A stretch of DNA of 64,000 bases, from contig CAMOVA010000001.1 of the NCBI GenBank assembly GCA_946626905.1, forward strand, positions 1,677-65,676, given 5' to 3'. Shown piece by piece: positions 2,242 through 37,315 of this stretch. The translations under genes and the position numbers were made by a program. Source of the stretch: an uncultured Bacillota bacterium (lineage in GTDB: Bacteria > Bacillota_I > Bacilli_A > RF39 > UBA660). The notes under the pieces are model-generated. The model had not been told where the DNA came from. It saw only the letters and a program-made list of their open reading frames with translations, and searched no databases. Each line of letters starts with the position of its first letter. Position 1 is the first letter of the stretch.

Positions 2242-3238
2242 TTTCTTCTAATACTTTTTTATAAATATCTATTAATTCTTTTCCAACTAATTTTACATCT
2301 CTAGACATAGCAACTTTATAACCTTTATCAGTTAAATCAGGTAATTCATTATTTAATATTTTTTTAATTTTAGTTTCAAATTCATCAACATTTTTAGCTT
2401 TATAAACATTTATTGAATCTTCTAACCAATCTTCAAATACTCCTATGTCTCTAATTATTGCTTTACATTTACAAGCACAAGCTTCCATAATAGGGATTCC
2501 TTCTGTTTCTTCCAATGTTGGAAATATATATAAATCTGCACCTGATAAAGCACTTTTTATCATAGATGGTTCTACATAACCAGCAAAAGTTAAATTTGGA
2601 AGTTTTGTTGTTACTGCATCTTTTATTTTTTTAGGTACTAATTTTAAATCAGTATAACCAAACCAAATAAATTTATATTCTGGCATTCTTTTAGCAAGTT
2701 CAACAAAATCTAGTATTCCTTTTCTTTCTAGATATAATCCTATTGCCATTACAACTTTATCTTCTTTTTTATATCCATATTTTTTTCTAAAGTCATTTCC
2801 TAATTTTTCATCTCTTTTGAAAAATTTAGTATCAATACCATTAGAAATTGCTGTTATGTTTTTAAGCCCATAACCTTCTAATAATCTTTTTGAATAAGGT
2901 GTCGGTGTAATTATATGATCACCTAATCTATAACATTTACATATCCACCATTTAAATAATGGCGCAATCATATTTGAAAATTTAAATGAATTTCTAAAAT
3001 CTTCCTCTGTTGAATGTGCATGATATATAACCTTTTTACCATGTTTTTTTGCTTTTTTAGCCATTCTATATGACTTAGGTCCAAAAAAGTTTATATGAAC
3101 AATATCATAATCATCTTTAGGATTAGTAGTATATGGAATATTATTATCTTCTAATGCTCTCATTTGATGTTTTATAGCTTTTCCTAATCCTGATTTTCCT
3201 ATTGCTTTTTCCATTTCTGTATATAATAGTACTTTCAT
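2237..3238 (-). CDS. glycosyltransferase, GT4 (GT-B fold) family
   Basis: 333 aa. C-terminal EETEGIPIMEA motif is typical of GT4/GT1 retaining transferases. N-terminal acceptor domain present. Confidence 0.75.
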   Translation of the reverse strand: MKVLLYTEMEKAIGKSGLGKAIKHQMRALEDNNIPYTTNPKDDYDIVHINFFGPKSYRMAKKAKKHGKKVIYHAHSTEEDFRNSFKFSNMIAPLFKWWICKCYRLGDHIITPTPYSKRLLEGYGLKNITAISNGIDTKFFKRDEKLGNDFRKKYGYKKEDKVVMAIGLYLERKGILDFVELAKRMPEYKFIWFGYTDLKLVPKKIKDAVTTKLPNLTFAGYVEPSMIKSALSGADLYIFPTLEETEGIPIMEACACKCKAIIRDIGVFEDWLEDSINVYKAKNVDEFETKIKKILNNELPDLTDKGYKVAMSRDVKLVGKELIDIYKKVLEEK

Positions 3239-3268
3239 ACAATCACCAAATTAATTATAACAAATTAA

Positions 3269-3490
3269 TTAATTTGTATCAACAAGTATTACATCTTCAC
3301 CTATCTTTTTTATTTGATTCCATTTTATTTCTTCATCACTATTTCCTCTAAATAAATTAAACTTTGCCTTACCTATAATTAAAGCATTAATAGTTCCACT
3401 AGTATTTATTGAAATATCCACAATATTGCCTATTTTTTTACCATCTTTAATACTTACAATATCTTTATTTTGTAATTCTGATAAATACAT
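3269..3490 (-). CDS. ylmC: YlmC/YmxH-family PRC-barrel sporulation protein
   Basis: 73 aa MYLSELQNKDIVSIKDGKKIGNIVDISINTSG..., typical of YlmC/YmxH and immediately downstream of sigG as in Bacillus. Confidence 0.7.
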   Translation of the reverse strand: MYLSELQNKDIVSIKDGKKIGNIVDISINTSGTINALIIGKAKFNLFRGNSDEEIKWNQIKKIGEDVILVDTN

Positions 3491-11700: not shown

Positions 11701-12624
11701 TTAATCTTCTTCAATAAATAGTTTTTTAATGTTTTTAAGTGGTAACATTATTTTAACATTTCTAACTATTTTGATTTCAAATGTATTTGTATCACCAACA
11801 TATTTTTCACCATCTAAACTCCATTTTGGATTATCTACATCATTAAATGTTACTTTAAATTTATCTGTTTTATAAAAATTAAATCCTGGCGCTTTTGTTA
11901 TATCTGAAGTTTTTAATCTATACAATCCACGAGCTATATCACGTTTTGCAGTGGCATCACACATTAATATTTCTATTCTATTATCATCCAATTTTATATT
12001 TTTATAAAAATTTTGAATACCAGCTATTCTATTAGCATTAGATATTAGAACAAATGAGAATTTTCCACTTATTGTTTTACCATCTACTTCATATGTTAAA
12101 TCATATAATTTAGTTGGTCCATTAAAATCTTTTAAAGCTTCTATTAAATAAGCAAAGTATCCATATTTTTTCTTAAGTTCACGAGGTGTTTCATAAGATA
12201 TATTAACAAATTTACCAAATCCTGCCGAATAAGTAAATGGTGTATCATTTATTGTACATATATCTATATTTTTTACTTTTCCATTTAATAATAATTTTAA
12301 ATTACGTATTAAATGTTTACTATATCCATACATTGCTCCTATATCATTAGCAGTTCCAACTGGTATGTGAGCTAATAATAATTTACGAGTTCTTTTGAAA
12401 TTACCAGACATAACTTCATTAAATGTTCCATCTCCACCTATTGATATAACTAAATCAACTGATTTCAATGATTCAATTATTTCTAATGCATGTCCTTTAT
12501 ATTCTGTTTTATAAATTATTGCTTCATACTCATAATCAAGCAATATTTTTTTTATTTTTTCTAATTCTTTATCAGTTATACCCTTTCCACTGTTTGGGTT
12601 ATATATAACAGCACATGTTTTCAT
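11701..12624 (-). CDS. diacylglycerol-kinase-family lipid kinase (DagK/YegS/BmrU-like)
   Basis: AVIYNPNSGKG...GGDGTFNEV catalytic-domain motifs. RBS AGAGGTGA before the ATG of MKTCAV; the track ORF starts at an upstream GTG. Confidence 0.8.
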   Translation of the reverse strand: MKTCAVIYNPNSGKGITDKELEKIKKILLDYEYEAIIYKTEYKGHALEIIESLKSVDLVISIGGDGTFNEVMSGNFKRTRKLLLAHIPVGTANDIGAMYGYSKHLIRNLKLLLNGKVKNIDICTINDTPFTYSAGFGKFVNISYETPRELKKKYGYFAYLIEALKDFNGPTKLYDLTYEVDGKTISGKFSFVLISNANRIAGIQNFYKNIKLDDNRIEILMCDATAKRDIARGLYRLKTSDITKAPGFNFYKTDKFKVTFNDVDNPKWSLDGEKYVGDTNTFEIKIVRNVKIMLPLKNIKKLFIEED

Positions 12625-12679
12625 ATAGTCACCTCTAATCACTTATATTATACATATTTAAAGTAAAAAAGCAAGAAAG

Positions 12680-12943
12680 TTAATTATTTTTTATATATTT
12701 TTCTAACTCTTCTAATTTTTCTCCACGAAGTGGTCGACATTTTTTATAAGCTTCTAAATTTTTTAACATTTCTTTTGCCATACCAGCACATGATCCATAA
12801 CCACATGCTCCACAATTATAACCAGGCAATCTTTTTAAATATTCTTCTTCTTTTGGATTTGTTTTATTTATTTTATTATCAACAACTACTAATACTATTC
12901 CTAAAATAAGTGCGGTTAAAGTTATTATAAGTATTCCTATCAT
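12680..12943 (-). CDS. rnfB: minimal RnfB (membrane anchor plus first Cys cluster only, no ferredoxin domains)
   Basis: 87 aa: TM helix followed by LPGYNCGACGYGSCAGMAKE...C (C-x2-C-x4-C-x16-C), the RnfB N-terminal cluster. The protein ends there; the dagK-like gene follows after 37 nt. Confidence 0.6.
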   Translation of the reverse strand: MIGILIITLTALILGIVLVVVDNKINKTNPKEEEYLKRLPGYNCGACGYGSCAGMAKEMLKNLEAYKKCRPLRGEKLEELEKYIKNN

Positions 12944-13071
12944 TTTTTCATCTCCTTATATAAATTACATCCCATGCATTTATCACAATTATGGTCACAT
13001 TTATTTTTATTTGATAAATATAATGTTATAGCAAATAACACTATTATTAATAAAAATGGTACTATAATCAT
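12940..13071 (-). CDS. 43-aa micro-ORF: single TM plus a CxxxCxxCxxC tail, translationally coupled between rnfA and rnfB
   Basis: MIIVPFLLIIVLFAITLYLSNKNKCDHNCDKCMGCNLYKEMKK. Its ATG overlaps the rnfA stop (ATGA) and its TGA overlaps the rnfB ATG (ATGA). Resembles FeoB-associated Cys-rich membrane peptides. Confidence 0.4.
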   Translation of the reverse strand: MIIVPFLLIIVLFAITLYLSNKNKCDHNCDKCMGCNLYKEMKK

Positions 13072-13631
13072 AAATATCTTGCGAAAAGCAATGCCATAAT
13101 TGCAGCTGTAAGTAATGCTATTGGATGTCCTTTAAAAGATGCAGGTATATCATTTTTATCTATTTTTTCTCTCATACTAGAGAATAAATATATTACAAAT
13201 GTAAAACCTAAACTACTAGAAATACTATATACAAGCATTTCTACAAAACTATAGTTATTTGTTATATTAAGTAATACTATTCCAAGAACTGCACAATTAG
13301 TAGTTATAAGTGGTAAATAAAGCCCTAAAACTTGATGTATTTTATTTAAATATTTTTTTAATAATATTTCTAATAACTGAACAAGTGAAGCAATAACTAA
13401 AATAAATAATACTGTTTTTAAATATTCTGTTTCAGTTGGAACTAATAAATATTTATATAAACACCAAGTTATTATAGAAGATAATGTAACTACTAACATT
13501 ACTGATATACCCATATAAATTGCATTACTTCTTTTTTTAGATGTTCCAATGAATGGACATATACCTAAAAATTTTGTTAATACTACATTTTCAGTAAGTA
13601 AGGCTGTTAAGCATATATTAATTAGATTCAT
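13068..13631 (-). CDS. rnfA: Rnf complex subunit A
   Basis: 187 aa, 6-TM NqrDE/RnfAE family (GICPF..., LGLYLPLITTNCAVLG). Confidence 0.85.
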   Translation of the reverse strand: MNLINICLTALLTENVVLTKFLGICPFIGTSKKRSNAIYMGISVMLVVTLSSIITWCLYKYLLVPTETEYLKTVLFILVIASLVQLLEILLKKYLNKIHQVLGLYLPLITTNCAVLGIVLLNITNNYSFVEMLVYSISSSLGFTFVIYLFSSMREKIDKNDIPASFKGHPIALLTAAIMALLFARYL

Positions 13632-14256
13632 TCTTATTACCTCCTCTTATATAGTTAAACAAAGCAAGTAAGCATGCTAATGTTATAAAAGCTCCTGCTG
13701 GTTTATTAAATATGTTTATAGGAAATAAATCTGAATGAAAATTAATTTTAAGAATTATTTCATGATGTGTAATATTACTTATTTCTTTCATTATAGTTAT
13801 TGTTTCATTACCTAATACTTCTCTTATTAACCCTAATACCATAAGAACAACTGTATAACCAAGTCCTACTCCTAAACCATCTAATACACTATTTTTAACA
13901 TTTTCTTTAGATGCAACAGATAAAGCTCTACCTAAAACAATACAATTTACTACTATAAGTGGTAAATATATTCCTAATACTTTATATAAAGGATTAACAT
14001 ATTCTTTTAATAAAATTTCTAGTACAGTTACTAATGTTGAAATAATAAGAATATATACTGGTATTTCTACATTTTTTGTTACATATTTACTTATTAATGA
14101 AACTATTAAATTAGAACAAATTAATACAATTGTTACACAAATTCCCATAATGTAGGAATTTTCAAAATTATTAGTTATAGCAAGTGCTGAACATAAACCT
14201 AATAATAATACTAAAACAGGATTTTCATTTACTATTCCATTTATTATTCTTTTCAT
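13618..14256 (-). CDS. rnfE: Rnf complex subunit E
   Basis: 212 aa NqrDE/RnfAE family (LGLCSALA, LGIYLPLIVVNCIVLGRA). Confidence 0.85.
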   Translation of the reverse strand: MKRIINGIVNENPVLVLLLGLCSALAITNNFENSYIMGICVTIVLICSNLIVSLISKYVTKNVEIPVYILIISTLVTVLEILLKEYVNPLYKVLGIYLPLIVVNCIVLGRALSVASKENVKNSVLDGLGVGLGYTVVLMVLGLIREVLGNETITIMKEISNITHHEIILKINFHSDLFPINIFNKPAGAFITLACLLALFNYIRGGNKNESN

Positions 14257-14356
14257 TTTAACCTCCTATTTAACTAAATTAGTAACAACGTATAATATTG
14301 TTCCACAAATTAATGCTGTTAATGTTAAAACAATAATACCTTGATATTTTTTCATA

Positions 14357-15775
14357 TTATTTCTCCATATCTTTCTTTACATTAATACACATTTTCTTTA
14401 AAGCTGTTGATGATATAGTAGCACCTGAAACAGTATCTACTTTATCTAAATTATTTTGATTATCTATTAATGTTTTAATATAATTTTTATTTGTAACCAA
14501 TTTATAATAATTTTCTGTTTCATTATTTTCTATTATTTTTATTTTTGTTATTTCATTATCTTTAATATATATTTTTGCTTTAATAGGTCCTCCATTACCA
14601 ACTTGTGAAACCACATAATAATTATCTTTCTTTTCTATTATTTTAAATTTTGAATCACTAGAATCACTATTAATATATTTATTTCCAACTAATAAACTAA
14701 CACCTAATAATAAACATGTTATTATTCCCATAGGAATTAATATTTGCATTATTGATTCTTTCTTTTTAGATCCTAATCTATCTAATAAGACAACAAACAT
14801 ATTCATTGTTAAAATCGATGTTAATACTCCTTCAGGAGCACTTGTATAATTTCTAAATAAAACAGTAAGTATACCTAAACAAAATGCATATATTACTTGT
14901 CCCAAACAAGTCGTTGGACTTGTAACAGGATCTGTAGCCATAAATACTGCTCCAAATAATAATCCTCCACTTAATATATTAAATGTTGGATACCATATTC
15001 CTTCTCCATTCATAGAGCCTATTATTAAAGTCATTACGAATACTGTTGATACATATATTAAAGGAATTTTCCATTTGATAACTTTCTTTAATACCAAATA
15101 TATATAAGCAACAATTATAAGAATTGAACAAGTTTCACCTACTGTTCCAGGAATCATTCCAAATAAGAAATCTTTTAAATCACCATATGGTTTTACTACT
15201 TTGTCATAATTACCTATTCCATCAATCATGTGATAATTAGTAAGTGGTGTCGCACTTCCTATTGTATCTAATTCATATTTATTTATATATCCACCATTAC
15301 TATTAATAACTGAGCCATAACAAGTAAGTACAAAAAGACAACCTATAAGTGCTGGATTAAAAATATTTTGCCCAAATCCACCATATAACATTTTCCCTAC
15401 AATAATTGCTACTACTGCACCTATTATTAATATAGGTAATGGTGTATTAAGAGGTAATACTAAAGATACAAATAGTCCTGGTAAAAAACTATATGAGTTT
15501 TTTATACTGTTAATTAAATCTTTATTTTTCTTTTTTAATACTAGATATGTATATATTGTTTCAGTAATAAAACTAGTAAATGTTCCTACAAAAACAAATA
15601 TAAGTGGATAAAACATTCCATATGTATCAGTTAAATTATGTTTGTATAATACTACACCATTTTTATAAAATGAAAATAAAATGATTGGTAGTAAAGCTAC
15701 TACTAAATGAAGCATAATCTTATTAGTTTTATTAGGGCTTTTTATGTATGGCCCTTTATAAGTATTAAATTCCAT
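14357..15775 (-). CDS. rnfD: RnfD-RnfG fusion protein
   Basis: 472 aa. N-terminal roughly 350 aa is RnfD/NqrB-like, including the flavinylation motif GSATPL. C-terminal roughly 110 aa is an FMN-binding RnfG/NqrC-like domain with SGATISS. Confidence 0.75.
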   Translation of the reverse strand: MEFNTYKGPYIKSPNKTNKIMLHLVVALLPIILFSFYKNGVVLYKHNLTDTYGMFYPLIFVFVGTFTSFITETIYTYLVLKKKNKDLINSIKNSYSFLPGLFVSLVLPLNTPLPILIIGAVVAIIVGKMLYGGFGQNIFNPALIGCLFVLTCYGSVINSNGGYINKYELDTIGSATPLTNYHMIDGIGNYDKVVKPYGDLKDFLFGMIPGTVGETCSILIIVAYIYLVLKKVIKWKIPLIYVSTVFVMTLIIGSMNGEGIWYPTFNILSGGLLFGAVFMATDPVTSPTTCLGQVIYAFCLGILTVLFRNYTSAPEGVLTSILTMNMFVVLLDRLGSKKKESIMQILIPMGIITCLLLGVSLLVGNKYINSDSSDSKFKIIEKKDNYYVVSQVGNGGPIKAKIYIKDNEITKIKIIENNETENYYKLVTNKNYIKTLIDNQNNLDKVDTVSGATISSTALKKMCINVKKDMEK

Positions 15776-16986
15776 TATTTCACCTTACCTTTTGCTTCCT
15801 TTAAATATTCACGCAAATTTATTCTAGCAGGACATATGAAAGAACATATTCCACATTCTATACATCTTGAAACATCTAATCTTTTTAATTCCTCTTTATC
15901 ATTTATATTATCTTTTACTAATACTGGGCATATTTTTGCTGGACAATGATCACTACATTTTCCACATCTAATACAAGTAGTTGCAATATCTTCTTTTGCT
16001 TTTTTTAATGCCAAAACGGCATTAACACTTGGATCTAATACAAATGATTCTTTTGATAAAGAATATCCCATCATAGGACCACCTGATATTAATGTAACAT
16101 CATCATTTTTATACCCTTTATAAATATCTTTCAATTCTTCAAATAATGTTCCTATTTTTATTTTAACGTTTATTTTTTTCTTAAATGATTCTCCACTAAT
16201 AGTTATTACTCTTTCAATTAGTGGTTTACCTTCTAATGCTTCAGATATTGAATAAATTGTTGAAGCATTTGAAACAACTATATTTTTTTCAGTTGGTAAT
16301 TTTTCATAATCTGTATGTTTTATATATCTAACAAGTGATTTTTCCCATCCCATTGGATATAAATTTGGCACTTGTACTACTGAAATAAAATCATAAGAAT
16401 TAATTGCTGGTATAATTTTTTCAAGTAAATTTCTATTACCAATTTTAATAGCAATAATTATCTCTTCTATAGAAAATATTTCTTTTATTTGCTCTAGTGC
16501 CTTTACAATTTTATTTATATATTTAAAACATACAACATTATCAGCTGTTATATATGGTTCACATTCAACAGCATTTACTATTAATGTTTTGATTTCATTA
16601 TCATATTTTATATATGAAGGAAATCCATTACCACTTAATCCTATAATTCCTTTTTCTTTTAACAATTCTATAAAATCTTCTTTTGTTTTAACAATAGGCT
16701 TTTTAAAACTATGATTTTCTTTAAAATCATTTTCTATTTCTAAAAATTTACATACATTATTTTTTGAATCCAATAGCTCTACTATTTTAGTTACTTTACC
16801 ACTAACACTACTATTAATAAAATAATTTCTCTCAATTATTTTATCTCCCATTTTAACTTTATCATTTTCTTTAACAAGTAATTTATCTTTTTCATCTATT
16901 TTAAAATATACATATTTAGGATTCAAAAATTCTTTTAATTTATATTTTGTATCTTTTTTATTTGCTTTTAATCTAATGCCTATCAT
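15775..16986 (-). CDS. rnfC: Rnf complex subunit C
   Basis: 403 aa. NADH/FMN-binding fold plus two C-terminal 4Fe-4S motifs, CIRCGKCSDHCP and CIECGICSFICP. Confidence 0.85.
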   Translation of the reverse strand: MIGIRLKANKKDTKYKLKEFLNPKYVYFKIDEKDKLLVKENDKVKMGDKIIERNYFINSSVSGKVTKIVELLDSKNNVCKFLEIENDFKENHSFKKPIVKTKEDFIELLKEKGIIGLSGNGFPSYIKYDNEIKTLIVNAVECEPYITADNVVCFKYINKIVKALEQIKEIFSIEEIIIAIKIGNRNLLEKIIPAINSYDFISVVQVPNLYPMGWEKSLVRYIKHTDYEKLPTEKNIVVSNASTIYSISEALEGKPLIERVITISGESFKKKINVKIKIGTLFEELKDIYKGYKNDDVTLISGGPMMGYSLSKESFVLDPSVNAVLALKKAKEDIATTCIRCGKCSDHCPAKICPVLVKDNINDKEELKRLDVSRCIECGICSFICPARINLREYLKEAKGKVK

Positions 16987-17002
16987 TATATCACCCTATT
17001 TC

Positions 17003-17032
17003 AATTATACTCTATTTACCAGTTAAATACAA
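17003..17032 (-). promoter_or_regulatory. candidate sigmaA promoter of the rnf operon (TTGTAT-18-TATAAT)
   Basis: Read directly on the minus strand upstream of rnfC, just downstream of the eno terminator. Confidence 0.35.
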
Positions 17033-17035
17033 ATA

Positions 17036-17056
17036 AAAACTAGATAAATCTAGTTT
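17036..17056 (-). terminator. rho-independent terminator of eno
   Basis: Perfect palindrome AAACTAGAT-AA-ATCTAGTTT followed on the minus-strand RNA by UUUUAUUUG. Confidence 0.5.
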
Positions 17057-27658: not shown

Positions 27659-27671
27659 CTTACCACCATAA

Positions 27672-28250
27672 TTATATGTGATGGCAAAAATATGGTTAAC
27701 TTTACGTCTTAGGTCAAGTAGAATTTCTCTAGTCTCTACAGTATGTTACCACGCTGCGGTTCCCCTTTAAAGAGACTAATATATTGTCACCAAATATATG
27801 ACTTGATTGCCACTTAGTACGTACTGCAATCCCATATTTTCACTCTAGAAGTTTTCCTCAACATTTTGTTTATTATTAATTCTCTTTTGCAAATATAATT
27901 TCATGAAGCAATAATCAATACCTTTTGGCCAAAAGATATTAATCTGTCATCAATTCCATATACTCACTCAAGACAAGCTACGCTACTCGTAAGTTTCCCC
28001 ACATAGTAGGTTCAAGCCTAAGTCGTCATAAGTCCGTCAACATACGTGTATAGGCTTATAACAAGTTTAGGTCTCCACGAAAGCTGGGTCAGAAATCGTA
28101 TGCCATTACGGTTGCCCAACAATCTAACCTTTCAGCACCCACCCAAATCTGGGCGAAATAAGCAAGCACCAAAAGTTTCACAGATATGCTCTTTAGTGGA
28201 TTTTTAGCCCCACCTTCATAATAAACTTAATGACTAGAATAGTGTGCCAT
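27672..28250 (-). ncRNA. large (about 580 nt) structured non-coding RNA, OLE-like candidate; unclassified
   Basis: No ORF of 60 aa or more in any frame. GC content visibly higher than the flanks. Many perfect hairpins: CUUUUGGCCAAAAG, CCCAGAUUUGGG, AAGCCUA...UAGGCUU, AGUCUCU...AGAGACU. Own promoter at 28258-28286. 3'-terminal hairpin CCAUCAC-auauaauuau-GUGGUGG contains the SD of the downstream gene. Confidence 0.5.
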
Positions 28251-28257
28251 CAAATAA

Positions 28258-28286
28258 ATTATATCAAAATAATTCTTCTAAGACAA
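28258..28286 (-). promoter_or_regulatory. sigmaA promoter of the large ncRNA, TTGTCT-17-TGaTATAAT (extended -10)
   Basis: Read on the minus strand directly downstream of the rpoC terminator. Confidence 0.5.
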
Positions 28287-28313
28287 CAAAAAATGGACTA
28301 TTTAATTAGTCCA
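28284..28313 (-). terminator. rho-independent terminator of rpoC
   Basis: Minus-strand RNA AUGGACUA-AUUAAA-UAGUCCAU followed by UUUUUUGUUG. The stem overlaps the rpoC stop codon. Confidence 0.6.
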
Positions 28314-31300
28314 TTAATTGATTTTCTAAAAGTTGTAATGGTTCTTCATCTACAGCATTTTCTAATTTATAATCTGAAGCTTGATATCTCTTTGCACCTG
28401 TTCCGGCAGGTATTAATTTACCAATAATTACATTTTCTTTAAGACCGTTTAAATGATCTACTCTACCATGTATAGCAGCATCTGTTAAAATTCTTGTTGT
28501 TTCTTGGAATGATGCAGCTGATAAGAATGAATCTGTTTCAAGTGAAGCTTTAGTAATACCTAACAATACTGGTCTACCAGTTGCTGGTGTTTTACCTTCT
28601 AATATTAATGCAGTATTTTTGCTTGTAAATTCATTAATATTAACCATTGTTCCAGGTAAGAAGTAAGAATCACCTGAGTTTACAATCTTAATTTTTGAAA
28701 TCATTCTTTTTGCCATTACTTCAATATGCTTATCTGAAATATCAACACCTTGTGAACGATAAACTTTTTGAATTTCCATAACTATATATTGTTGTACTGT
28801 TATAGGGTCTGTAACTACTAATAATTCTTTTGGACTAATAGCACCATGAGTTAAACGTTGACCTGCTTTAACTTCATCACCCTTAGCAACAGCTAATTTT
28901 GCACCATAGTTAGATGTATGTTCTCTAACTTGAGCATCATTTTTAACAGAAATAATATATTTACCGTTTGATTCTTCGATTTCTGTAACTGTACCATTAA
29001 TTTCAGAAATAGTTGCTTTACCTTTTGGATTACGAGCTTCGAACAACTCTTGAACACGAGGTAAACCTTGTGTAATATCGTCTCCGGCAACACCACCTGA
29101 GTTGATAGTACGCATTGTAAGTTGGGTACCTGGTTCACCAATTGATTGAGCAGCCATAATACCAACAGCTTCTCCTATTTCAACAACATGACCAGTAGCT
29201 AAGTTACGACCATAACAATGTTTACATACTCCATTTTCACTCTTACATGTTAGTAATGTTCTAATAGATACTTTTGTAACACCAGCTTTAATTATTTTAT
29301 CAGCTAATTGTTCTGTAATATAAACATTTTTATCTACAATCATTTCTTTAGTTTCTGGGTCTAATACTTTTTTATTTGTATATCTTCCTAAGATTCTTTC
29401 ACGTAATGGTTCAATTATAGTTCCATCAGTATTGTATAGTGTTTCTACAACTACACCTGAATCTGTACCACAATCTTCTTCTTTTACGATTATATCTTGT
29501 GCTACATCAACTAATCTTCTTGTTAAGTAACCAGCATCTGCTGTTTTTAACGCTGTATCAACAAATCCTTTTCTGATACCATGTGTACCTGTAAAGAATT
29601 CTGAAACGCTTGCACCATCAATAAATGATGATTTGATTGGAATTTCATCTGGTTCACCTGTTGGTTTAGCCATAAGTCCACGCATACCAGCCATTTGGTT
29701 ATAGTTACTTAAGTTACCACGAGCTCCTGAATCTATCATAATAGAAATAGGATTTTCTTTATGTTCTTTTATAATTGTAGCAAGTTCATCTGCTATTGTA
29801 GATGTTGCTCCATTCCATGTTTCAATTACTTTTTCATATCTTTCACGATCAGTAATTAAACCACGTTTAAATTGTTTATTAATTTGAGCAATAGTTTCAC
29901 TTGCTTGTTTTAATACTTCTGGTTTTTTCTTAGAAGCAATGATATCACCTATACCTATTGAAATACCAGATAATGTTGATTCTTTGAAACCTAAATCTTT
30001 CATCTTATCAAGCATTATAGATGTTTCAGTTGTTTGATATCTTTTATATACTTGAGCAATTAATTTTGTTAGAACTTTTTTACCAAATGGTTTTACAAGT
30101 TCCATGTTTTCAATTGCTTCTTTTATATTTGTTCCTTTTTTAAGGAAATATTTATTTGGAGTTATTCCTTCTATATTTTCATCTGTTCCTTCATTTATAT
30201 ATTGGAATGAATCTGGGAATATCTCATTAAATTTAATTTTACCTGGTGTTGTTACTAAATATTTTTCTTTTTGAGAATCTGTAAATAAAGTATGTTTAAA
30301 TCCACTTGCTGGAATAGCAATTCTTGTATGTAAAGAGATTTCTCTTCTTTCATAAGCCATTAAAGCCTCATCTGGATTTCTAAATACTCTACCTTCTCCT
30401 ACTTCACCAGCTTTTTCTATAGTAATATAGTAGTTACCTAAGATCATATCTTGACCTGGAGTAACGATTGGATTACCATCTGATGGTTTCAAGATGTTAT
30501 TAGCACCTAACATTAATACTCTTGCTTCTGCTTGTGCTTCAACACTTATAGGTACGTGAACGGCCATTTGGTCTCCATCAAAGTCAGCGTTAAATGCTGT
30601 ACAAACAAGTGGATGAAGTCTTATTGAACGTCCTTCGATTAGTTTTGGTTCAAATGCTTGAATACCAAGTCTATGAAGAGTTGGTGCACGGTTAAGCATT
30701 ACTGGATGTTCTTTTATTTTTTCTTCTACAACATCCCATACTCTTTCATCTTGATTTTCAATCATTCTTTTTGCAGCTTTAATATTTGAAGCTATTCCTT
30801 TTGTAACTAATCCATTTATAACATGTGGTTTGAATAATTCTAAAGCCATTTCTTTAGGTATACCACATTCATACATCTTAAGTGATGGTCCAACTACGAT
30901 AACTGAACGACCTGAATAGTCAACACGTTTACCAAGTAAGTTTTGACGGAAACGTCCTTGTTTTCCTTTTAACATACTTGAAAGTGATTTAAGTGGTCTG
31001 TTTCCAGCTCCTGTAACATTACGACCTCTTCTACCATTATCGAATAAAGCATCTACTGCTTCTTGAAGCATACGCTTTTCGTTTTGGATGATAATAGAAG
31101 GAGCTCCTAATTCTAATAATTTCTTTAAACGATTATTTCTATTAATAATACGTCTATATAAATCATTTAAATCTGAAGTAGCAAATCTACCACCATCTAA
31201 TTGAATCATTGGTCTTAAATCAGGTGGAATTACTGGAAGAACATCCATAATCATCCATTCTGGTTTATTTCCTGATTCTAAGAATGCATCTAATACATCT

Positions 31301-31935
31301 AATCTTTTAATTAAACGTATTCTTTTTTGATTTGACGAATCTTTGATTTCATCAATTTCTTTTTGTAGTTTTTCTACTTCGTCTTTAATATTAACTTCTT
31401 TAAGTAAAGTTTGGATAGCTTCAGCACCCATTCCTACTTTAAAAGTATCACCATATTTTTCATAATATGCACGATATTCTTTATCTGAAATTGTTTGTTT
31501 TTTCTCTAAAGGTGCAGGTCCTGGATCTAAAACAACATATGATACGAAATATAATACTTCTTCTAGATCTCTTGGTGACATATCAAGTACTAATCCCATA
31601 CGTGATGGTACACCTTTAAAGAACCAAATGTGTGAGACAGGAGTTGCTAATTCAATATGTCCCATACGTTCACGACGTACTTTAGAACGAGTTACTTCAA
31701 CTCCACATCTATCACATACAACATTTTTATATCTTAATCTTTTATATTTTCCACAAGAACATTCATAGTCTTTTGTAGGACCAAAGATTTTTTCGCAATA
31801 TAAACCGTCTCTTTCAGGTTTTAAAGTACGATAATTAATTGTTTCTGCTTTTTTAACTTCTCCATAAGACCAATCTCTTATTTTTTCTGGTGAAGCTATT
31901 CCAATTCTTAAACCTTCAAAACTGTTTGCATCCAT
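28306..31935 (-). CDS. rpoC: DNA-directed RNA polymerase subunit beta'
   Basis: 1209 aa. NADFDGD motif, zinc-binding Cys clusters. Confidence 0.97.
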
Positions 31936-34900
31936 TAATCTTCAACCCCTTTCATAACTGATTCAAGATCCTCTAAAGTTGGTTCCATATCATCTAGATT
32001 TTCTTCAACTTCTTCAGGTTCTTCTTCCTCTAGTTCTTCTTGTGGTTCTGATTCTTCTTCAGTAGGAACTTGATAATCTACTGATTCTAAGAAATCATTT
32101 TCTTCTTCCCCTTCAAGTTCTTTTAAATCTACAAAATTTCCTTCTTTATTTAGAACTGTAATATCAAGTCCTAAAGCTTGGAATTCTTTTATTAATACAC
32201 GGAAACTTTCTGGTACTCCTGATGGTGGAAGTGGTGTTCCTTTAACAAGTGATTCATACACTTTAACACGACCAACTACATCGTCTGATTTAACTGTCAT
32301 CATTTCTTGAAGAACATGTGCAGCACCATATGCATATAATGCCCAAACTTCCATTTCTCCAAATCTTTGTCCACCAAATTGAGCTTTACCACCAAGTGGT
32401 TGTTGTGTAACAAGTGAGTAAGGTCCTGTTGATCTTGCATGTAACTTATCATCAACCATATGGTTAAGTTTTATAAAGTACATAACACCAACACTTACTT
32501 TATTATCAAATGGTTCACCTGTACGTCCATCATATAATTGGAATTTTCCATCTTCTGGTAATTTAGCTTCTTTTAAAGCTTCAATTACTTCGTCACGAGT
32601 TGCTCCATCAAATACTGGAGTTGCTACATAAACACCTAATTCACGAGCTGCCATTCCTAAATGCATTTCTAGAATTTGTCCAATGTTCATACGTGATGGA
32701 ACTCCTAGTGGGTTAAGTAAAATATCTACTGGTGTACCATCTTCTAAGTATGGCATATCTTCTTCTGGTAATACAAGTGAGACAACACCTTTGTTACCAT
32801 GACGTCCTGCCATTTTATCTCCAACGCTTATTTTACGTTTTTGTGCTATATAAACTCTAATTATTTTAGAAACACCAGCTGGTAGTTCATCTGAATCCTC
32901 TTTTGTAAAGATTTTTACATCATGAACAATACCTCCACCACCGTGTGGAACACGAAGTGATGTATCTCTAACTTCACGAGTTTTTTCTCCAAATATAGCA
33001 TGTAATAATTTTTCTTCTGAAGTAAGTTCAGCCATTCCTTTTGGAGTAACTTTACCTACTAAGATATCATCATCTTTAACTTCTGTACCTATTCTGATAA
33101 TACCATTTTCATCTAAGTTTTTACGTGCTTCTTCACCAACATTAGGAATATCTCTTGTGAATTCTTCTGGTCCTAATTTAGTGTCACGACATTCAATTTC
33201 ATAATCTTCGATATGAATAGATGTAAATGTATCATCTTTAACTAATCTTTCGTTTAAAACGATAGCGTCTTCATAGTTATATCCATTAAAGTTCATAAAT
33301 GCTACTGTAACATTTCTACCTAAAGCCATTTCTCCTTTATTAGTAGAAGGTCCATCAGCAATTACTTCATCTTTTTTAACTTTATCTCCTAATTTAACAA
33401 TAGGAACTTGATGATAACAAGTACCAGCATTACTTCTTTCAAATCCATTTAAGTAATATGTATCCATTCCTTTTGCTGTCTTAACAATAATCTTGTTAGC
33501 ATCTACATAATCAACAACACCATCAGCTTTACTGATAATAACAGCTCCTGAATCTTTAGCAGCTATTGCTTCAATTCCAGTACCAACTATTGGTGCTTCT
33601 GTTTTAATTAATGGTATAGCTTGACGTTGCATGTTGGCACCCATAAGTGCACGTTTACCATCATCATGATCCAAGAATGGGATACCTTGAGTAGCTATTG
33701 ATACTACTTGTTGAGGTGAAACGTCTGCATAATCTATCTTATCTGAATCAATCATAATATTGTCAGAACGATATCTAACAGGTACTCTTTCATCTAAAAT
33801 CTTACCATTTTCATCTACATTTAATGAAGCTTGTGAAATATAGTAATCTAATTCTTCATCTGCAGTCATATATACTACTTCATCTGTTAACACACCATCT
33901 TTTACTTTTCTATATGGTGTCATAATAAATCCATAATCATTTACTCTAGCATATGATGCTAAAGAAGTAATAAGTCCAATGTTAGGCCCTTCTGGTGATT
34001 CAACTGGACATAATCTACCATAATGTGATGGATTAACGTCACGAACGTCCATACCAGCTCTATCTCTTGAAAGACCTCCAGGTCCTAATGAAGATAATCT
34101 TCTTTTGTTTGTAAGTTCTGCAACTGGGTTAATTTGATCCATGAATTGTGATAATTGACTTGAACCAAAGAACTCTTTGATTGATGCAGTAAGTGGTCTA
34201 ATATTTATTAAAGATTTTGGAGTAACTTCAGTTATTTCTTGAGTACTCATTCTATCTCTAATTACTCTATCAATACGACTTATACCTATTTTGAATTGAT
34301 TTTGAAGTAATTCACCAACTTGTCTAACACGTCTGTTTGATAAGTGATCTATTTCATCAAATTTTCCAATTCCTTCTAATAAGTTTAAGTAATATGATGT
34401 TGCACCATAAATATCTGGTATAGTAAGTCTCTTAACATCTATTGATTGATCATTACCAATAACATTAACTACTTTATCAGGATTTACTTTTGAATAAACT
34501 TTAACCATTTGAACTTTATCATAAGTATCTAAATCTTTATTTATTAAAACTTCTTTTAATCCATATCCATTAGCTAAAATTGGTTTTAATTTTTCGATTG
34601 TTTCTTTATCAATTACTGTTCCTGCTTCAATTACAGTTTTTCCATCTTTGATAGTTTCAGCTAAAGTACATCCAAGTAATCTGTCTGTTAAGTTTAATTT
34701 TTTATTAAATTTATAACGACCTACACGTGCTAGATCATATCTAAATGAATCAAAGAATCTAGTAATCAATTGATTCTTAGCACTATCTAATGTAGATGGT
34801 TCACCTGGTCTTAATTTAGCATGAATATCTATTAATGATTCATCTGTATTTTTATTAGAATCTTTAGCAATTGTATTTTCTAAGTATTCACTCTTACCAA

Positions 34901-35531
34901 ATAAATCTAAAATATCCTCATCACTAGATAAACCTACAGCACGTAATAATGTTGTTAATGGAACTTTTCTTGTTCTATCAATTCTAACATAAATTACATT
35001 TCTAGCATCTACTTCATATTCTAACCAAGTACCTCTATTTGGTATCATTTGTGAAGTTATTACTAGTCTTCCATTTTTGTCTACTTCTTTTCCAAAATAG
35101 ATTGATGGTGATCTAACAAGTTGAGATACGATAACTCTTTCTGCACCATTAATAACGAAAGTTCCGCTTTCGGTCATAACAGGCATATCTCCAAGATAAA
35201 TTTCTTGTTCTTTTACTTCTCCTGTTTCATGATTAAAAAGTCTTGCTTCAACTTTTAAAGGCGCTGCATAAGTTGAATATCTTTCTTTACAACCTTTTAT
35301 TGAGTATCTAGGTTGTTCAAATGAATAGTCACCAAATTCCAAGGATAACTTTCCTTGGAAGTCTTCTATAGGGAATATTTCATCAAATACCTCTTTTATT
35401 CCTTCAGTTATAAACCAATCATATGATTTTTTTTGAATTTCTAATAAGTTAGAAAGTTCAATAGCATTCTTTGTTTTTCCATAATTTCTTCTCTTACGAT
35501 GGTCACCAAATTTTTTAACTTTATATGCCAC
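31935..35531 (-). CDS. rpoB: DNA-directed RNA polymerase subunit beta
   Basis: 1198 aa, conserved throughout, with an acidic C-terminal tail. Confidence 0.97.
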
Positions 35532-37155: not shown

Positions 37156-37315
37156 TACTACACCTCCATCCATATAAAGTACCATATAAAAGCCTTACAT
37201 ACAGTAAGGCCAAAGAATCTAAAAAAGTTCCTCGGTAGGATATTAAGATTTCTCCCCTACTGTCTACGGTACATATAAATTTTCAAACGACAAATTGATT
37301 ATATCATAAACATAA
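37156..37315 (-). promoter_or_regulatory. rplJ leader, probable L10 autoregulatory leader element
   Basis: 160-nt untranslated gap between rplA and rplJ with GC-rich pairing segments (GUAGACAGUAGGGGAGAAAUC...CCUACCGAGGAAC). Confidence 0.4.

Follow-up and report, generated by a model that had tools for sequence, protein, structure and literature searches.

A putative streamlined Rnf complex with a one-cluster RnfB, a free-standing RnfG-type anchor and a Cys-rich micro-protein in uncultured Bacilli

Can a membrane complex whose RnfB subunit is cut down to 87 residues still work as an Rnf pump? Many anaerobes rely on Rnf as their main site of energy coupling, and the question is raised by an operon at positions 12680-16986 of a 64,000-nucleotide stretch of DNA (hereafter the window; positions 1,677 to 65,676 of contig CAMOVA010000001.1, GenBank assembly GCA_946626905.1) from an uncultured Bacillota bacterium of the RF39 lineage. 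A preliminary description, made from the letters alone, had reported an atypical rnf operon of six open reading frames (ORFs), comprising rnfC, an RnfD-RnfG fusion, rnfE, rnfA, a Cys-rich micro-ORF and a shortened rnfB, and all six are present on the minus strand with the coordinates it reported. With a further small gene, m1, the operon reads rnfC, rnfD::FMN_bind, m1, rnfE, rnfA, m2 and mini-rnfB. We consider it fairly probable, on comparative sequence evidence, that this set encodes a lineage-specific, functional and streamlined Rnf, that is, a ferredoxin:NAD+ oxidoreductase-type ion pump.

Operon architecture and conservation

The operon opens with rnfC (16986..15775, minus strand, as for all its genes), encoding the 403-amino-acid (aa) NADH/FMN (flavin mononucleotide) subunit with two [4Fe-4S] motifs (CIRCGKCSDHCP and CIECGICSFICP). 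RnfC scores 284.7 bits with TIGR01945 (cut-off 245.95) and contains the Pfam domains RnfC_N, Complex1_51K and Fer4. The second gene, rnfD::FMN_bind (15775..14357), encodes a 472-aa protein composed of RnfD, an extra transmembrane (TM) helix and a single extracytoplasmic FMN_bind domain, and is followed by m1 (14355..14266), a 29-aa single-TM peptide (MKKYQGIIVLTLTALICGTILYVVTNLVK). Two membrane subunits come next, RnfE (14256..13618; 212 aa) and RnfA (13631..13068; 187 aa), carrying the ligands of the intramembrane [2Fe-2S] cluster at C22 and C105 in RnfE and at C25 and C113 in RnfA; the RnfA residue numbers are the same as in Acetobacterium woodii (PMC11889175). Both match PF02508; RnfE reaches 225 bits with NF009070, passing the cut-off, while RnfA reaches 224.7 bits with TIGR01943, slightly below its cut-off of 229.3. 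The operon closes with m2 (13071..12940), a 43-aa peptide whose N-terminal TM helix is followed by basic NKNK residues and, on the cytoplasmic side, by a tail reading C-x3-C-x2-C-x2-C, and with mini-rnfB (12943..12680), whose 87-aa product consists of the TM1B helix and one PF04060 [4Fe-4S] domain.

All subunits score higher with Rnf than with Nqr models (Pfam and NCBIfam). No NqrF-like gene is present in the operon and the A/C-type subunit carries Fe-S and FMN-domain motifs, which sets the operon apart from Na+-translocating NADH:quinone oxidoreductase (Na+-NQR). RnfC, RnfD, RnfE and RnfA are clear homologues of their counterparts in the canonical RnfCDGEAB complexes of A. woodii (9eri), Clostridium tetanomorphum (7zc6) and Azotobacter vinelandii (Rnf1, 8ahx), and the gene order equals the Firmicute order C-D-(G)-E-A-B. 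All ligands of the U-shaped electron path are kept, namely the two RnfC [4Fe-4S] motifs, the flavinylation threonines of RnfD and of FMN_bind, the four RnfA/RnfE cysteines and the four RnfB cysteines. The operon differs from these complexes in an FMN domain fused to RnfD through a new TM helix, an RnfG cut to the 29-aa m1 and the addition of m2. Judged by the core features of its sequence, it remains an Rnf complex in variant form.

Related loci were gathered from the genomic contexts of three homologues and from an RnfB-alignment scan of one genome per GTDB species, yielding 64 loci with a short RnfB, 54 of them unique operons, which were surveyed by ORF finding and BLAST. A scan of genome contigs with the fused RnfD protein alone gave no matches, while the short-RnfB alignment scan did work. 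All loci come from uncultured metagenome-assembled genomes (MAGs) labelled Bacilli, Firmicutes, 'Mollicutes', 'Tenericutes' or Muribaculaceae (the last likely mislabelled), sampled from human, Hadza, rabbit, deer and ruminant guts and from digesters. They share the order rnfC, rnfD::FMN_bind, m1, rnfE, rnfA, m2, short rnfB, with an rnfD::FMN_bind product of 452-598 aa whose ~590-aa forms contain two FMN_bind domains. All 54 loci compared keep the four intramembrane cysteines (RnfA C25/C113 and RnfE C22/C105), and all 55 relatives compared keep both flavinylation threonines (T176 and T453). The same layout in 54 unique operons answers whether fusion, truncation and micro-ORF recur in orthologous operons, a check that the preliminary description had proposed.

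These comparative data exclude the reading that assembly or sequencing errors, or the decay of a pseudogenised operon, produced the short RnfB, the fusion and the small ORFs. The suspicion was voiced only in the preliminary description, which pointed to possible frameshifts at 12640-12680 and 14256-14357, and the MAG is very AT-rich (GC ~0.25). Against it stand the identical architecture across many independent assemblies, the invariance of every cofactor ligand, purifying selection on the micro-ORFs, and identical copies of the window's m2, RnfB and fused protein on several independent contigs (NCBI, ENA and Logan); such an origin is next to impossible. The supposed frameshift gap of 100 bp at 14257-14356 instead holds the conserved 29-aa m1.

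The relatives also vary in gene content. Around 15 loci (L007-L011, L014-L017, L021, L022, L028, L032, L038 and L044) carry an extra gene of ~178-276 aa between m1 and rnfE that does not occur in the window; two representatives have no Pfam match, and the 273-276-aa form displays Cys, His and Asp residues (GAAMCLERSAIL...HSYNI...YDISNP) in a pattern reminiscent of a transglutaminase-like or cysteine-protease fold. In L005 and L006, SUF genes encoding a SufC-like ABC ATPase, a SUFBD_core protein and a SufS-type aminotransferase lie directly upstream of rnfC (1-2849), a neighbourhood that may be coincidence or may be relevant to Fe-S maturation of the complex.

RnfB, the fused flavin domain and the anchor m1

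The window's RnfB retains one cluster domain and no ferredoxin-type domain, while canonical RnfBs carry 3-8 clusters (PMC11889175). Its only Pfam match is PF04060 'FeS' at residues 39-71, Fer4 domains are absent in both Pfam and NCBIfam, and NCBIfam RnfB models are covered over their first ~80 positions only, with TIGR01944 giving 36.5 bits (cut-off 68.7) across model positions 8-83 of 190. The cluster motif, C44-x2-C47-x4-C52-x16-C69, has all four cysteines invariant in 32 homologues. The preliminary description of an RnfB reduced to a membrane anchor and this motif was accurate.

Structural work on A. woodii divides RnfB into three parts: the TM1B helix, the B8 domain (residues 30-100), which holds one cluster and is highly mobile, and a polyferredoxin body (B1-B7) on which ferredoxin docks (PMC11889175). 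Known RnfBs other than this one have 3-6 clusters (PMC11889175). The B8 domain swings onto RnfA/RnfE and reduces the intramembrane [2Fe-2S] cluster (AE1), and mutation of the B8 ligands formed part of the authors' test of the path (PMC11889175). By alignment, the 87-aa RnfB is exactly TM1B plus the mobile B8 domain of the characterised protein, and its residues 5-75 align with residues 6-77 of A. vinelandii RnfB (8ahx_B). Short-RnfB homologues form 192 clusters at 90% identity; among 120 listed, lengths span 52-94 aa, with nearly all annotated with PF04060 only.

An AlphaFold2 (AF2) model of the protein (predicted local distance difference test score, pLDDT, 89.7) consists of a TM helix and a small helical domain, the closest solved folds to which are N-terminal [4Fe-4S] domains of the corrinoid Fe-S protein (Foldseek probability 0.97-0.99). 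This domain of the large subunit (PF04060; PDB 2ycl and 4djd) shares its small helical one-cluster fold with the soluble part of mini-RnfB; the corrinoid protein takes part in methyl transfer in the acetyl-CoA pathway and has no membrane anchor, and the likeness is confined to the domain. A strong AAGGAG motif precedes rnfB, and since the following gene, encoding a DAGK-type lipid kinase (12642..11701, minus strand), starts 37 bp past the rnfB stop, the locus leaves no room for a longer RnfB. Apart from rnfC, no Fer4 gene occurs in the 64-kb window or in the operon flanks of the relatives.

Since RnfB is exactly TM1B plus B8, the parsimonious route would be a direct reaction with ferredoxin. 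A soluble low-potential carrier (ferredoxin, possibly flavodoxin) would reduce the tethered B8-type cluster without a polyferredoxin wire, and the small RnfB domain would then swing onto RnfA/RnfE and hand the electron to the [2Fe-2S] cluster. Next in line would be the FMN of the outer domain, now tethered to RnfD, and after it the flavin of RnfD, the clusters and FMN of RnfC and, last, NAD+; the flow would be reversible and coupled to Na+/H+ translocation.

The loss of the polyferredoxin, along with its basic 'fishing hook' for ferredoxin, would also fit a complex that no longer uses ferredoxin, whose single-cluster RnfB serves another partner (compare E. coli Rsx-SoxR) or whose FMN domains pass electrons from NADH to an extracytoplasmic acceptor. 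Many relatives do carry at least two FMN_bind domains on RnfD, and Méheust et al. tie such arrangements to extracytosolic electron transfer (PMC8238504). The window's fused protein, however, has only one FMN_bind domain, neither the operon nor its flanks contain a candidate alternative partner, and the invariant ligands of the RnfB cluster and the RnfA/RnfE [2Fe-2S] cluster argue that the cytoplasmic input branch is in use. We regard a complex detached from ferredoxin as very unlikely.

On the outer side of the proposed ferredoxin-driven path, the fused protein comprises an RnfD domain (PF03116, residues 7-337, E 2e-78) and an FMN_bind domain (PF04205, residues 393-463, E 2.4e-13), with predicted flavinylation sites in DTIGSAT (T176, RnfD part) and DTVSGAT (T453, FMN_bind part). 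It scores 209.1 bits with TIGR01946 rnfD (cut-off 207.05) and matches the RnfD chains 7zc6_D, 9eri_D and 8ahx_D. A separate RnfG, combining a TM anchor with a covalent-FMN domain, is not found; its two parts are split, and the fused protein matches TIGR01947 rnfG with E 0.098 only. The fusion by itself is unremarkable, because RnfD-FMN_bind fusions are frequent among the closest relatives: the PF03116 + PF04205 architecture is common among the closest 150 cluster representatives (450-1853 aa). Multi-flavinylated RNF systems (Méheust et al. 2021, PMC8238504) likewise have RnfD or RnfG proteins with extra FMN_bind domains; the window's clade is distinguished from them by the lack of a separate full-length RnfG, only m1 being present, and by the pairing of the fusion with a mini-RnfB. 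At the far end of this range, several very long RnfD proteins (P0215, 1853 aa; P0146, 990 aa; P0148, P0158 and P0164) show many tandem FMN_bind domains, with up to 13 matched stretches.

Two more distant operons, recovered by an exhaustive search with the fused protein, reveal another layout. In L087 (33% identity) a full rnfG of 277 aa comes after rnfD::FMN_bind, and in L091 (40% identity, with a sporulation gene nearby) a full rnfG of 180 aa comes after a 990-aa rnfD with about five FMN_bind repeats; both encode an FeS-only RnfB of 103-107 aa (107 aa in L091). These layouts suggest an order of events in which RnfD::FMN_bind with mini-RnfB is the older and wider state and rnfG shrank to its anchor helix in the window's clade. 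Phmmer comparison of the fused FMN_bind domain with the RnfG and RnfD-fused domains of L087 and L091 and with canonical RnfG returned similar, weak scores throughout (6-28 bits). In L087, a divergent apbE flavin-transferase gene (2337-3449, minus strand) was also observed upstream of rnfC.

The small gene m1 occupies the position between rnfD and rnfE that rnfG holds in canonical operons and that a full rnfG holds in L087 and L091, and it was found in all 61 related loci that include both neighbours. An alignment of 42 sequences gives the consensus MxKKIKxILVLTLTALICSxLxYLV, with Cys17 invariant and T11 near-invariant, and properly aligned pairs yield a ratio of nonsynonymous to synonymous substitution rates (dN/dS) of 0.31-0.38. 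The peptide ends after 29 aa, directly past the helix, and contains neither a covalent-FMN domain nor an S-G-A-T site.

Profile comparison by hhalign in local mode, with the N-termini of eight full-length RnfG proteins (from other phyla, plus L087 and L091) as the RnfG target, aligned m1 to RnfG over 31 columns from residue 1 (96.7%, E 4e-10, score 39.4). Other membrane helices scored lower: the RnfB helix of the same clade (94.1%, 29.0), canonical RnfB helices (56.7%, 21.5), the link helix inside the fused protein (5.9%, 13.8) and m2 (3.8%, 12.4). A global-mode run of m1 against the N-termini of six canonical RnfG proteins gave 35.5; 100 column shuffles of m1 averaged 4.1 (standard deviation 2.5, maximum 12.9). 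Profile and position together identify m1 as a relic of the N-terminal membrane anchor of RnfG (TM1G). The fusion proposed in the preliminary description is thus real as a single 472-aa ORF with both flavinylation motifs; it is incomplete as a union of RnfD with the whole of RnfG, since the RnfG anchor is still a separate gene, L087 and L091 have a full rnfG at the m1 position, and the link helix is unlike RnfG TM1.

TM1B contacts TM1G in A. woodii Rnf (PMC11889175), and from this packing we infer that m1 has probably been retained to preserve the same contact. It would occupy the TM1G slot beside the RnfB helix, with the FMN domain now hanging from RnfD. The anchor helix of RnfB (12900-12943) and m1 (14266-14340) also resemble each other locally (IITLTALILG and IVLTLTALICG) and cross-match in BLAST, which may be due to common descent or to mutual adaptation of two helices that pack together. 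Cys17 of m1 (14305-14307) lies mid-membrane and is not conserved in canonical RnfG anchors; L062, L076 and L091 have a Cys nearby.

The Cys-rich micro-protein m2

The second small gene, m2, overlaps both rnfA and rnfB by ATGA in the window and is present between rnfA and rnfB in 61 of the 64 related loci. It has been lost in L021, L028 and L043 and is absent in L091, with RnfB short in all four. Across the 54 unique operons, m2 always starts between -8 and +5 nt from the rnfA stop, and in 35 of them its end shares 4 nt with the start of rnfB. A Shine-Dalgarno (SD)-like motif precedes m2 in 20 operons, compared with 50 for rnfB and for rnfE, and because such motifs are few, translation of m2 likely depends on that of rnfA.

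The 52 distinct m2 sequences align as a TM helix, a basic LYSKNK-like stretch and a C-x2-C-x2-C core, in which the CxxC is invariant and the third Cys is conserved in at least 90%; many members have a fourth, upstream Cys, as in the window. Positive-inside reasoning predicts a Cys tail on the cytoplasmic face, adjoining the B8 docking site. Properly aligned pairs give a dN/dS of 0.12-0.6. A role as regulatory leader peptide of rnfB was considered and is unlikely, the TM helix and Cys motif being conserved with dN/dS below 1.

PF12669 comprises small, Cys-rich peptides encoded downstream of feoB or fused to it in Firmicutes and Bacteroidetes, with presumed iron binding (PMC8749426). This family matches 32 of the 52 m2 members at E<=10 (best E 4.8e-7), mostly below the cut-off, and ten relatives of the window's m2 score 11-23 bits (gathering cut-off 27). 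Both groups combine a TM helix with a short Cys-rich tail, PF12669 peptides measuring 30-60 aa; they differ in motif (Cx3-5Cx2-3Cx6-8C in PF12669, C-x2/3-C-x2-C-x2-C in m2) and in setting, as m2 lies inside the rnf operon in all 61 loci and never next to feoB, and the window holds no second copy. A search of 5.8 billion proteins with the m2 profile returned five matches only, ORFs of this length being seldom called and E-values at this length being harsh. By its sequence, m2 is probably a sub-threshold relative of the FeoB-associated Cys-rich peptides, and the conserved, translationally coupled micro-ORF resembling such peptides that the preliminary description reported is borne out.

A closer functional parallel may be NqrM, a small membrane-bound protein needed to insert the intramembrane [2Fe-2S] cluster of NQR (PMC12174285). 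NqrM (DUF539, PF04400) and m2 are each a single TM helix with cysteines, encoded in the operon of an Rnf/Nqr-type pump with an intramembrane [2Fe-2S] cluster; m2 is about half the size, has no detected sequence similarity to NqrM and lies between rnfA and rnfB, whereas nqrM follows apbE. Kostyrko and colleagues reportedly described, in 2016, an NqrM architecture of a single TM helix and then a Cys-rich cytoplasmic part. We tentatively favour an accessory role for m2 in handling iron or Fe-S clusters, or in stabilising the complex, in the manner of NqrM. At the cytoplasmic membrane face, its Cys tail would bind iron or a labile Fe-S cluster and help to build or stabilise the RnfA/RnfE [2Fe-2S] or the RnfB cluster, making m2 a functional analogue of NqrM and not an obligatory site of electron entry. 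The narrower proposal, that m2 is an Rnf-dedicated branch of PF12669 acting as a membrane-tethered, NqrM-like donor of iron or Fe-S to the RnfA/RnfE [2Fe-2S] cluster, is possible and rather doubtful.

The preliminary description had placed the micro-ORF in a 'rewired electron-input module'. In that case m2 would be a true redox subunit whose tail cluster, completed by its own fourth Cys or by dimerisation, replaces the RnfB polyferredoxin as the docking and entry site for ferredoxin. The (near-)invariant CxxCxxC core, with its frequent fourth Cys, is compatible with this, the ATGA overlaps imply co-production with RnfA and RnfB, and even the distant L087 encodes a 64-aa TM+4-Cys ORF at the m2 position beside its mini-RnfB, although without detectable PF12669 similarity. 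The tail of only ~12-20 residues, however, is too short to shield a cluster alone, the number of Cys residues varies, a single weak Fer4_2 match is the only Fer4 hit among the 52 members, and known Rnf complexes already have a mobile B8-type domain open to solvent (PMC11889175). The four loci without m2 keep their short RnfB, and the loss of m2 from three of the 64 favours an accessory or maturation role over that of a substitute input module. A redox subunit of this kind is quite unlikely, and the proposed part of m2 in electron input is not supported.

Alternatively, m1 and m2 could both be purely structural small subunits of the CydX type, their TM helices gluing the reduced complex together while the m2 tail holds Zn or no ligand at all. 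Each is a single-TM peptide that is conserved along with the operon, their translational coupling suggests stoichiometric synthesis, and for m1 the TM1B-TM1G packing of A. woodii Rnf (PMC11889175) fits well. For m2, conservation is concentrated in the Cys motif and not in the helix, the gene can be lost, and its PF12669 relatives are linked to iron transport (PMC8749426), which together render a purely structural pair unlikely.

Several points weigh against the reading we prefer, a ferredoxin-driven streamlined Rnf with m1 as RnfG anchor and m2 as an accessory, NqrM-like protein. Direct transfer from ferredoxin to B8, although most likely, follows solely from the parts that are missing, and a trans-encoded electron partner is possible given the 64 kb of genome seen; the relatives, too, are all uncultured MAGs. 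The high hhalign score of m1 with the RnfB helix of its own clade implies that TM-helix composition adds to the RnfG signal, and the fused FMN_bind domain may go back either to the former RnfG domain or to a paralogue. With PF12669, the m2 of the window reaches just 11.4 bits, the Cys count ranges from 3 to 5 among members, and none of the 52 m2 sequences matches RseC or, at E<=10, PF04400, a threshold search in which HMMER filters may hide very weak matches. Finally, a stoichiometric subunit would explain the tight ATGA coupling of m2 just as well as an assembly factor would.

Genomic context and significance

The operon is flanked in the window by the DAGK-type kinase gene and then QueH downstream, and by enolase upstream of rnfC. 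The 63-bp spacer between enolase and rnfC (16987-17049) contains an AT-rich hairpin with a T-run behind it (AAACTAGATTTATCTAGTTTTT) as well as a TATAAT box, which suggests that the rnf operon has its own promoter; a scan for promoter and terminator consensus sites is uninformative in DNA this AT-rich (window GC ~0.25), with 43 sites seen and 44 expected. Elsewhere, the window encodes a full-length OLE (ornate large extremophilic) RNA (27665-28266, minus strand; 402.9 bits, E 7e-115), notable for a small, very AT-rich gut Bacilli MAG, and a ribosomal protein L10 leader (37176-37287, minus strand; 67.5 bits). The region at ~22-38 kb is higher in GC; judging by its ORFs of 1198-1209 aa (28306-35531), it probably carries ribosomal and RNA polymerase genes.

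JGI records call the short RnfB 'RnfB', and two NCBI records list it as 'hypothetical protein'. Most of the records retrieved call the m1 ORF, and those of L001-L004 have no call for m2; where called, the micro-ORFs are unnamed. Literature searches for truncated or short RnfB, RnfD-G fusions and Rnf in 'Tenericutes' or RF39 found no description of the window's variant, nor did we find any of a one-cluster RnfB, of an RnfG anchor standing on its own or of a Cys-rich micro-protein within an rnf operon.

Cryo-EM work has proposed that only the small, mobile, one-cluster domain of RnfB communicates with the membrane core. A family that keeps only this B8-type domain offers a natural test of that model and a convenient minimal system for structural and mechanistic study. 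The survival of the RnfG anchor as a 29-aa gene argues that the helix has a structural job separate from the flavin domain. The position of m2 between rnfA and rnfB would tie PF12669, a widespread but functionally uncharacterised family, to an Fe-S enzyme of the membrane and suggests an NqrM-like factor for Rnf; should m2 indeed be such a donor, this would provide the first testable function for PF12669 and the missing cluster-insertion factor of Rnf. If the proposed reading is true, a one-cluster RnfB, a free-standing RnfG anchor and m2 would make this complex a minimal natural Rnf, and metabolic reconstructions that define Rnf by RnfB annotation could misjudge its presence in these gut Bacilli.

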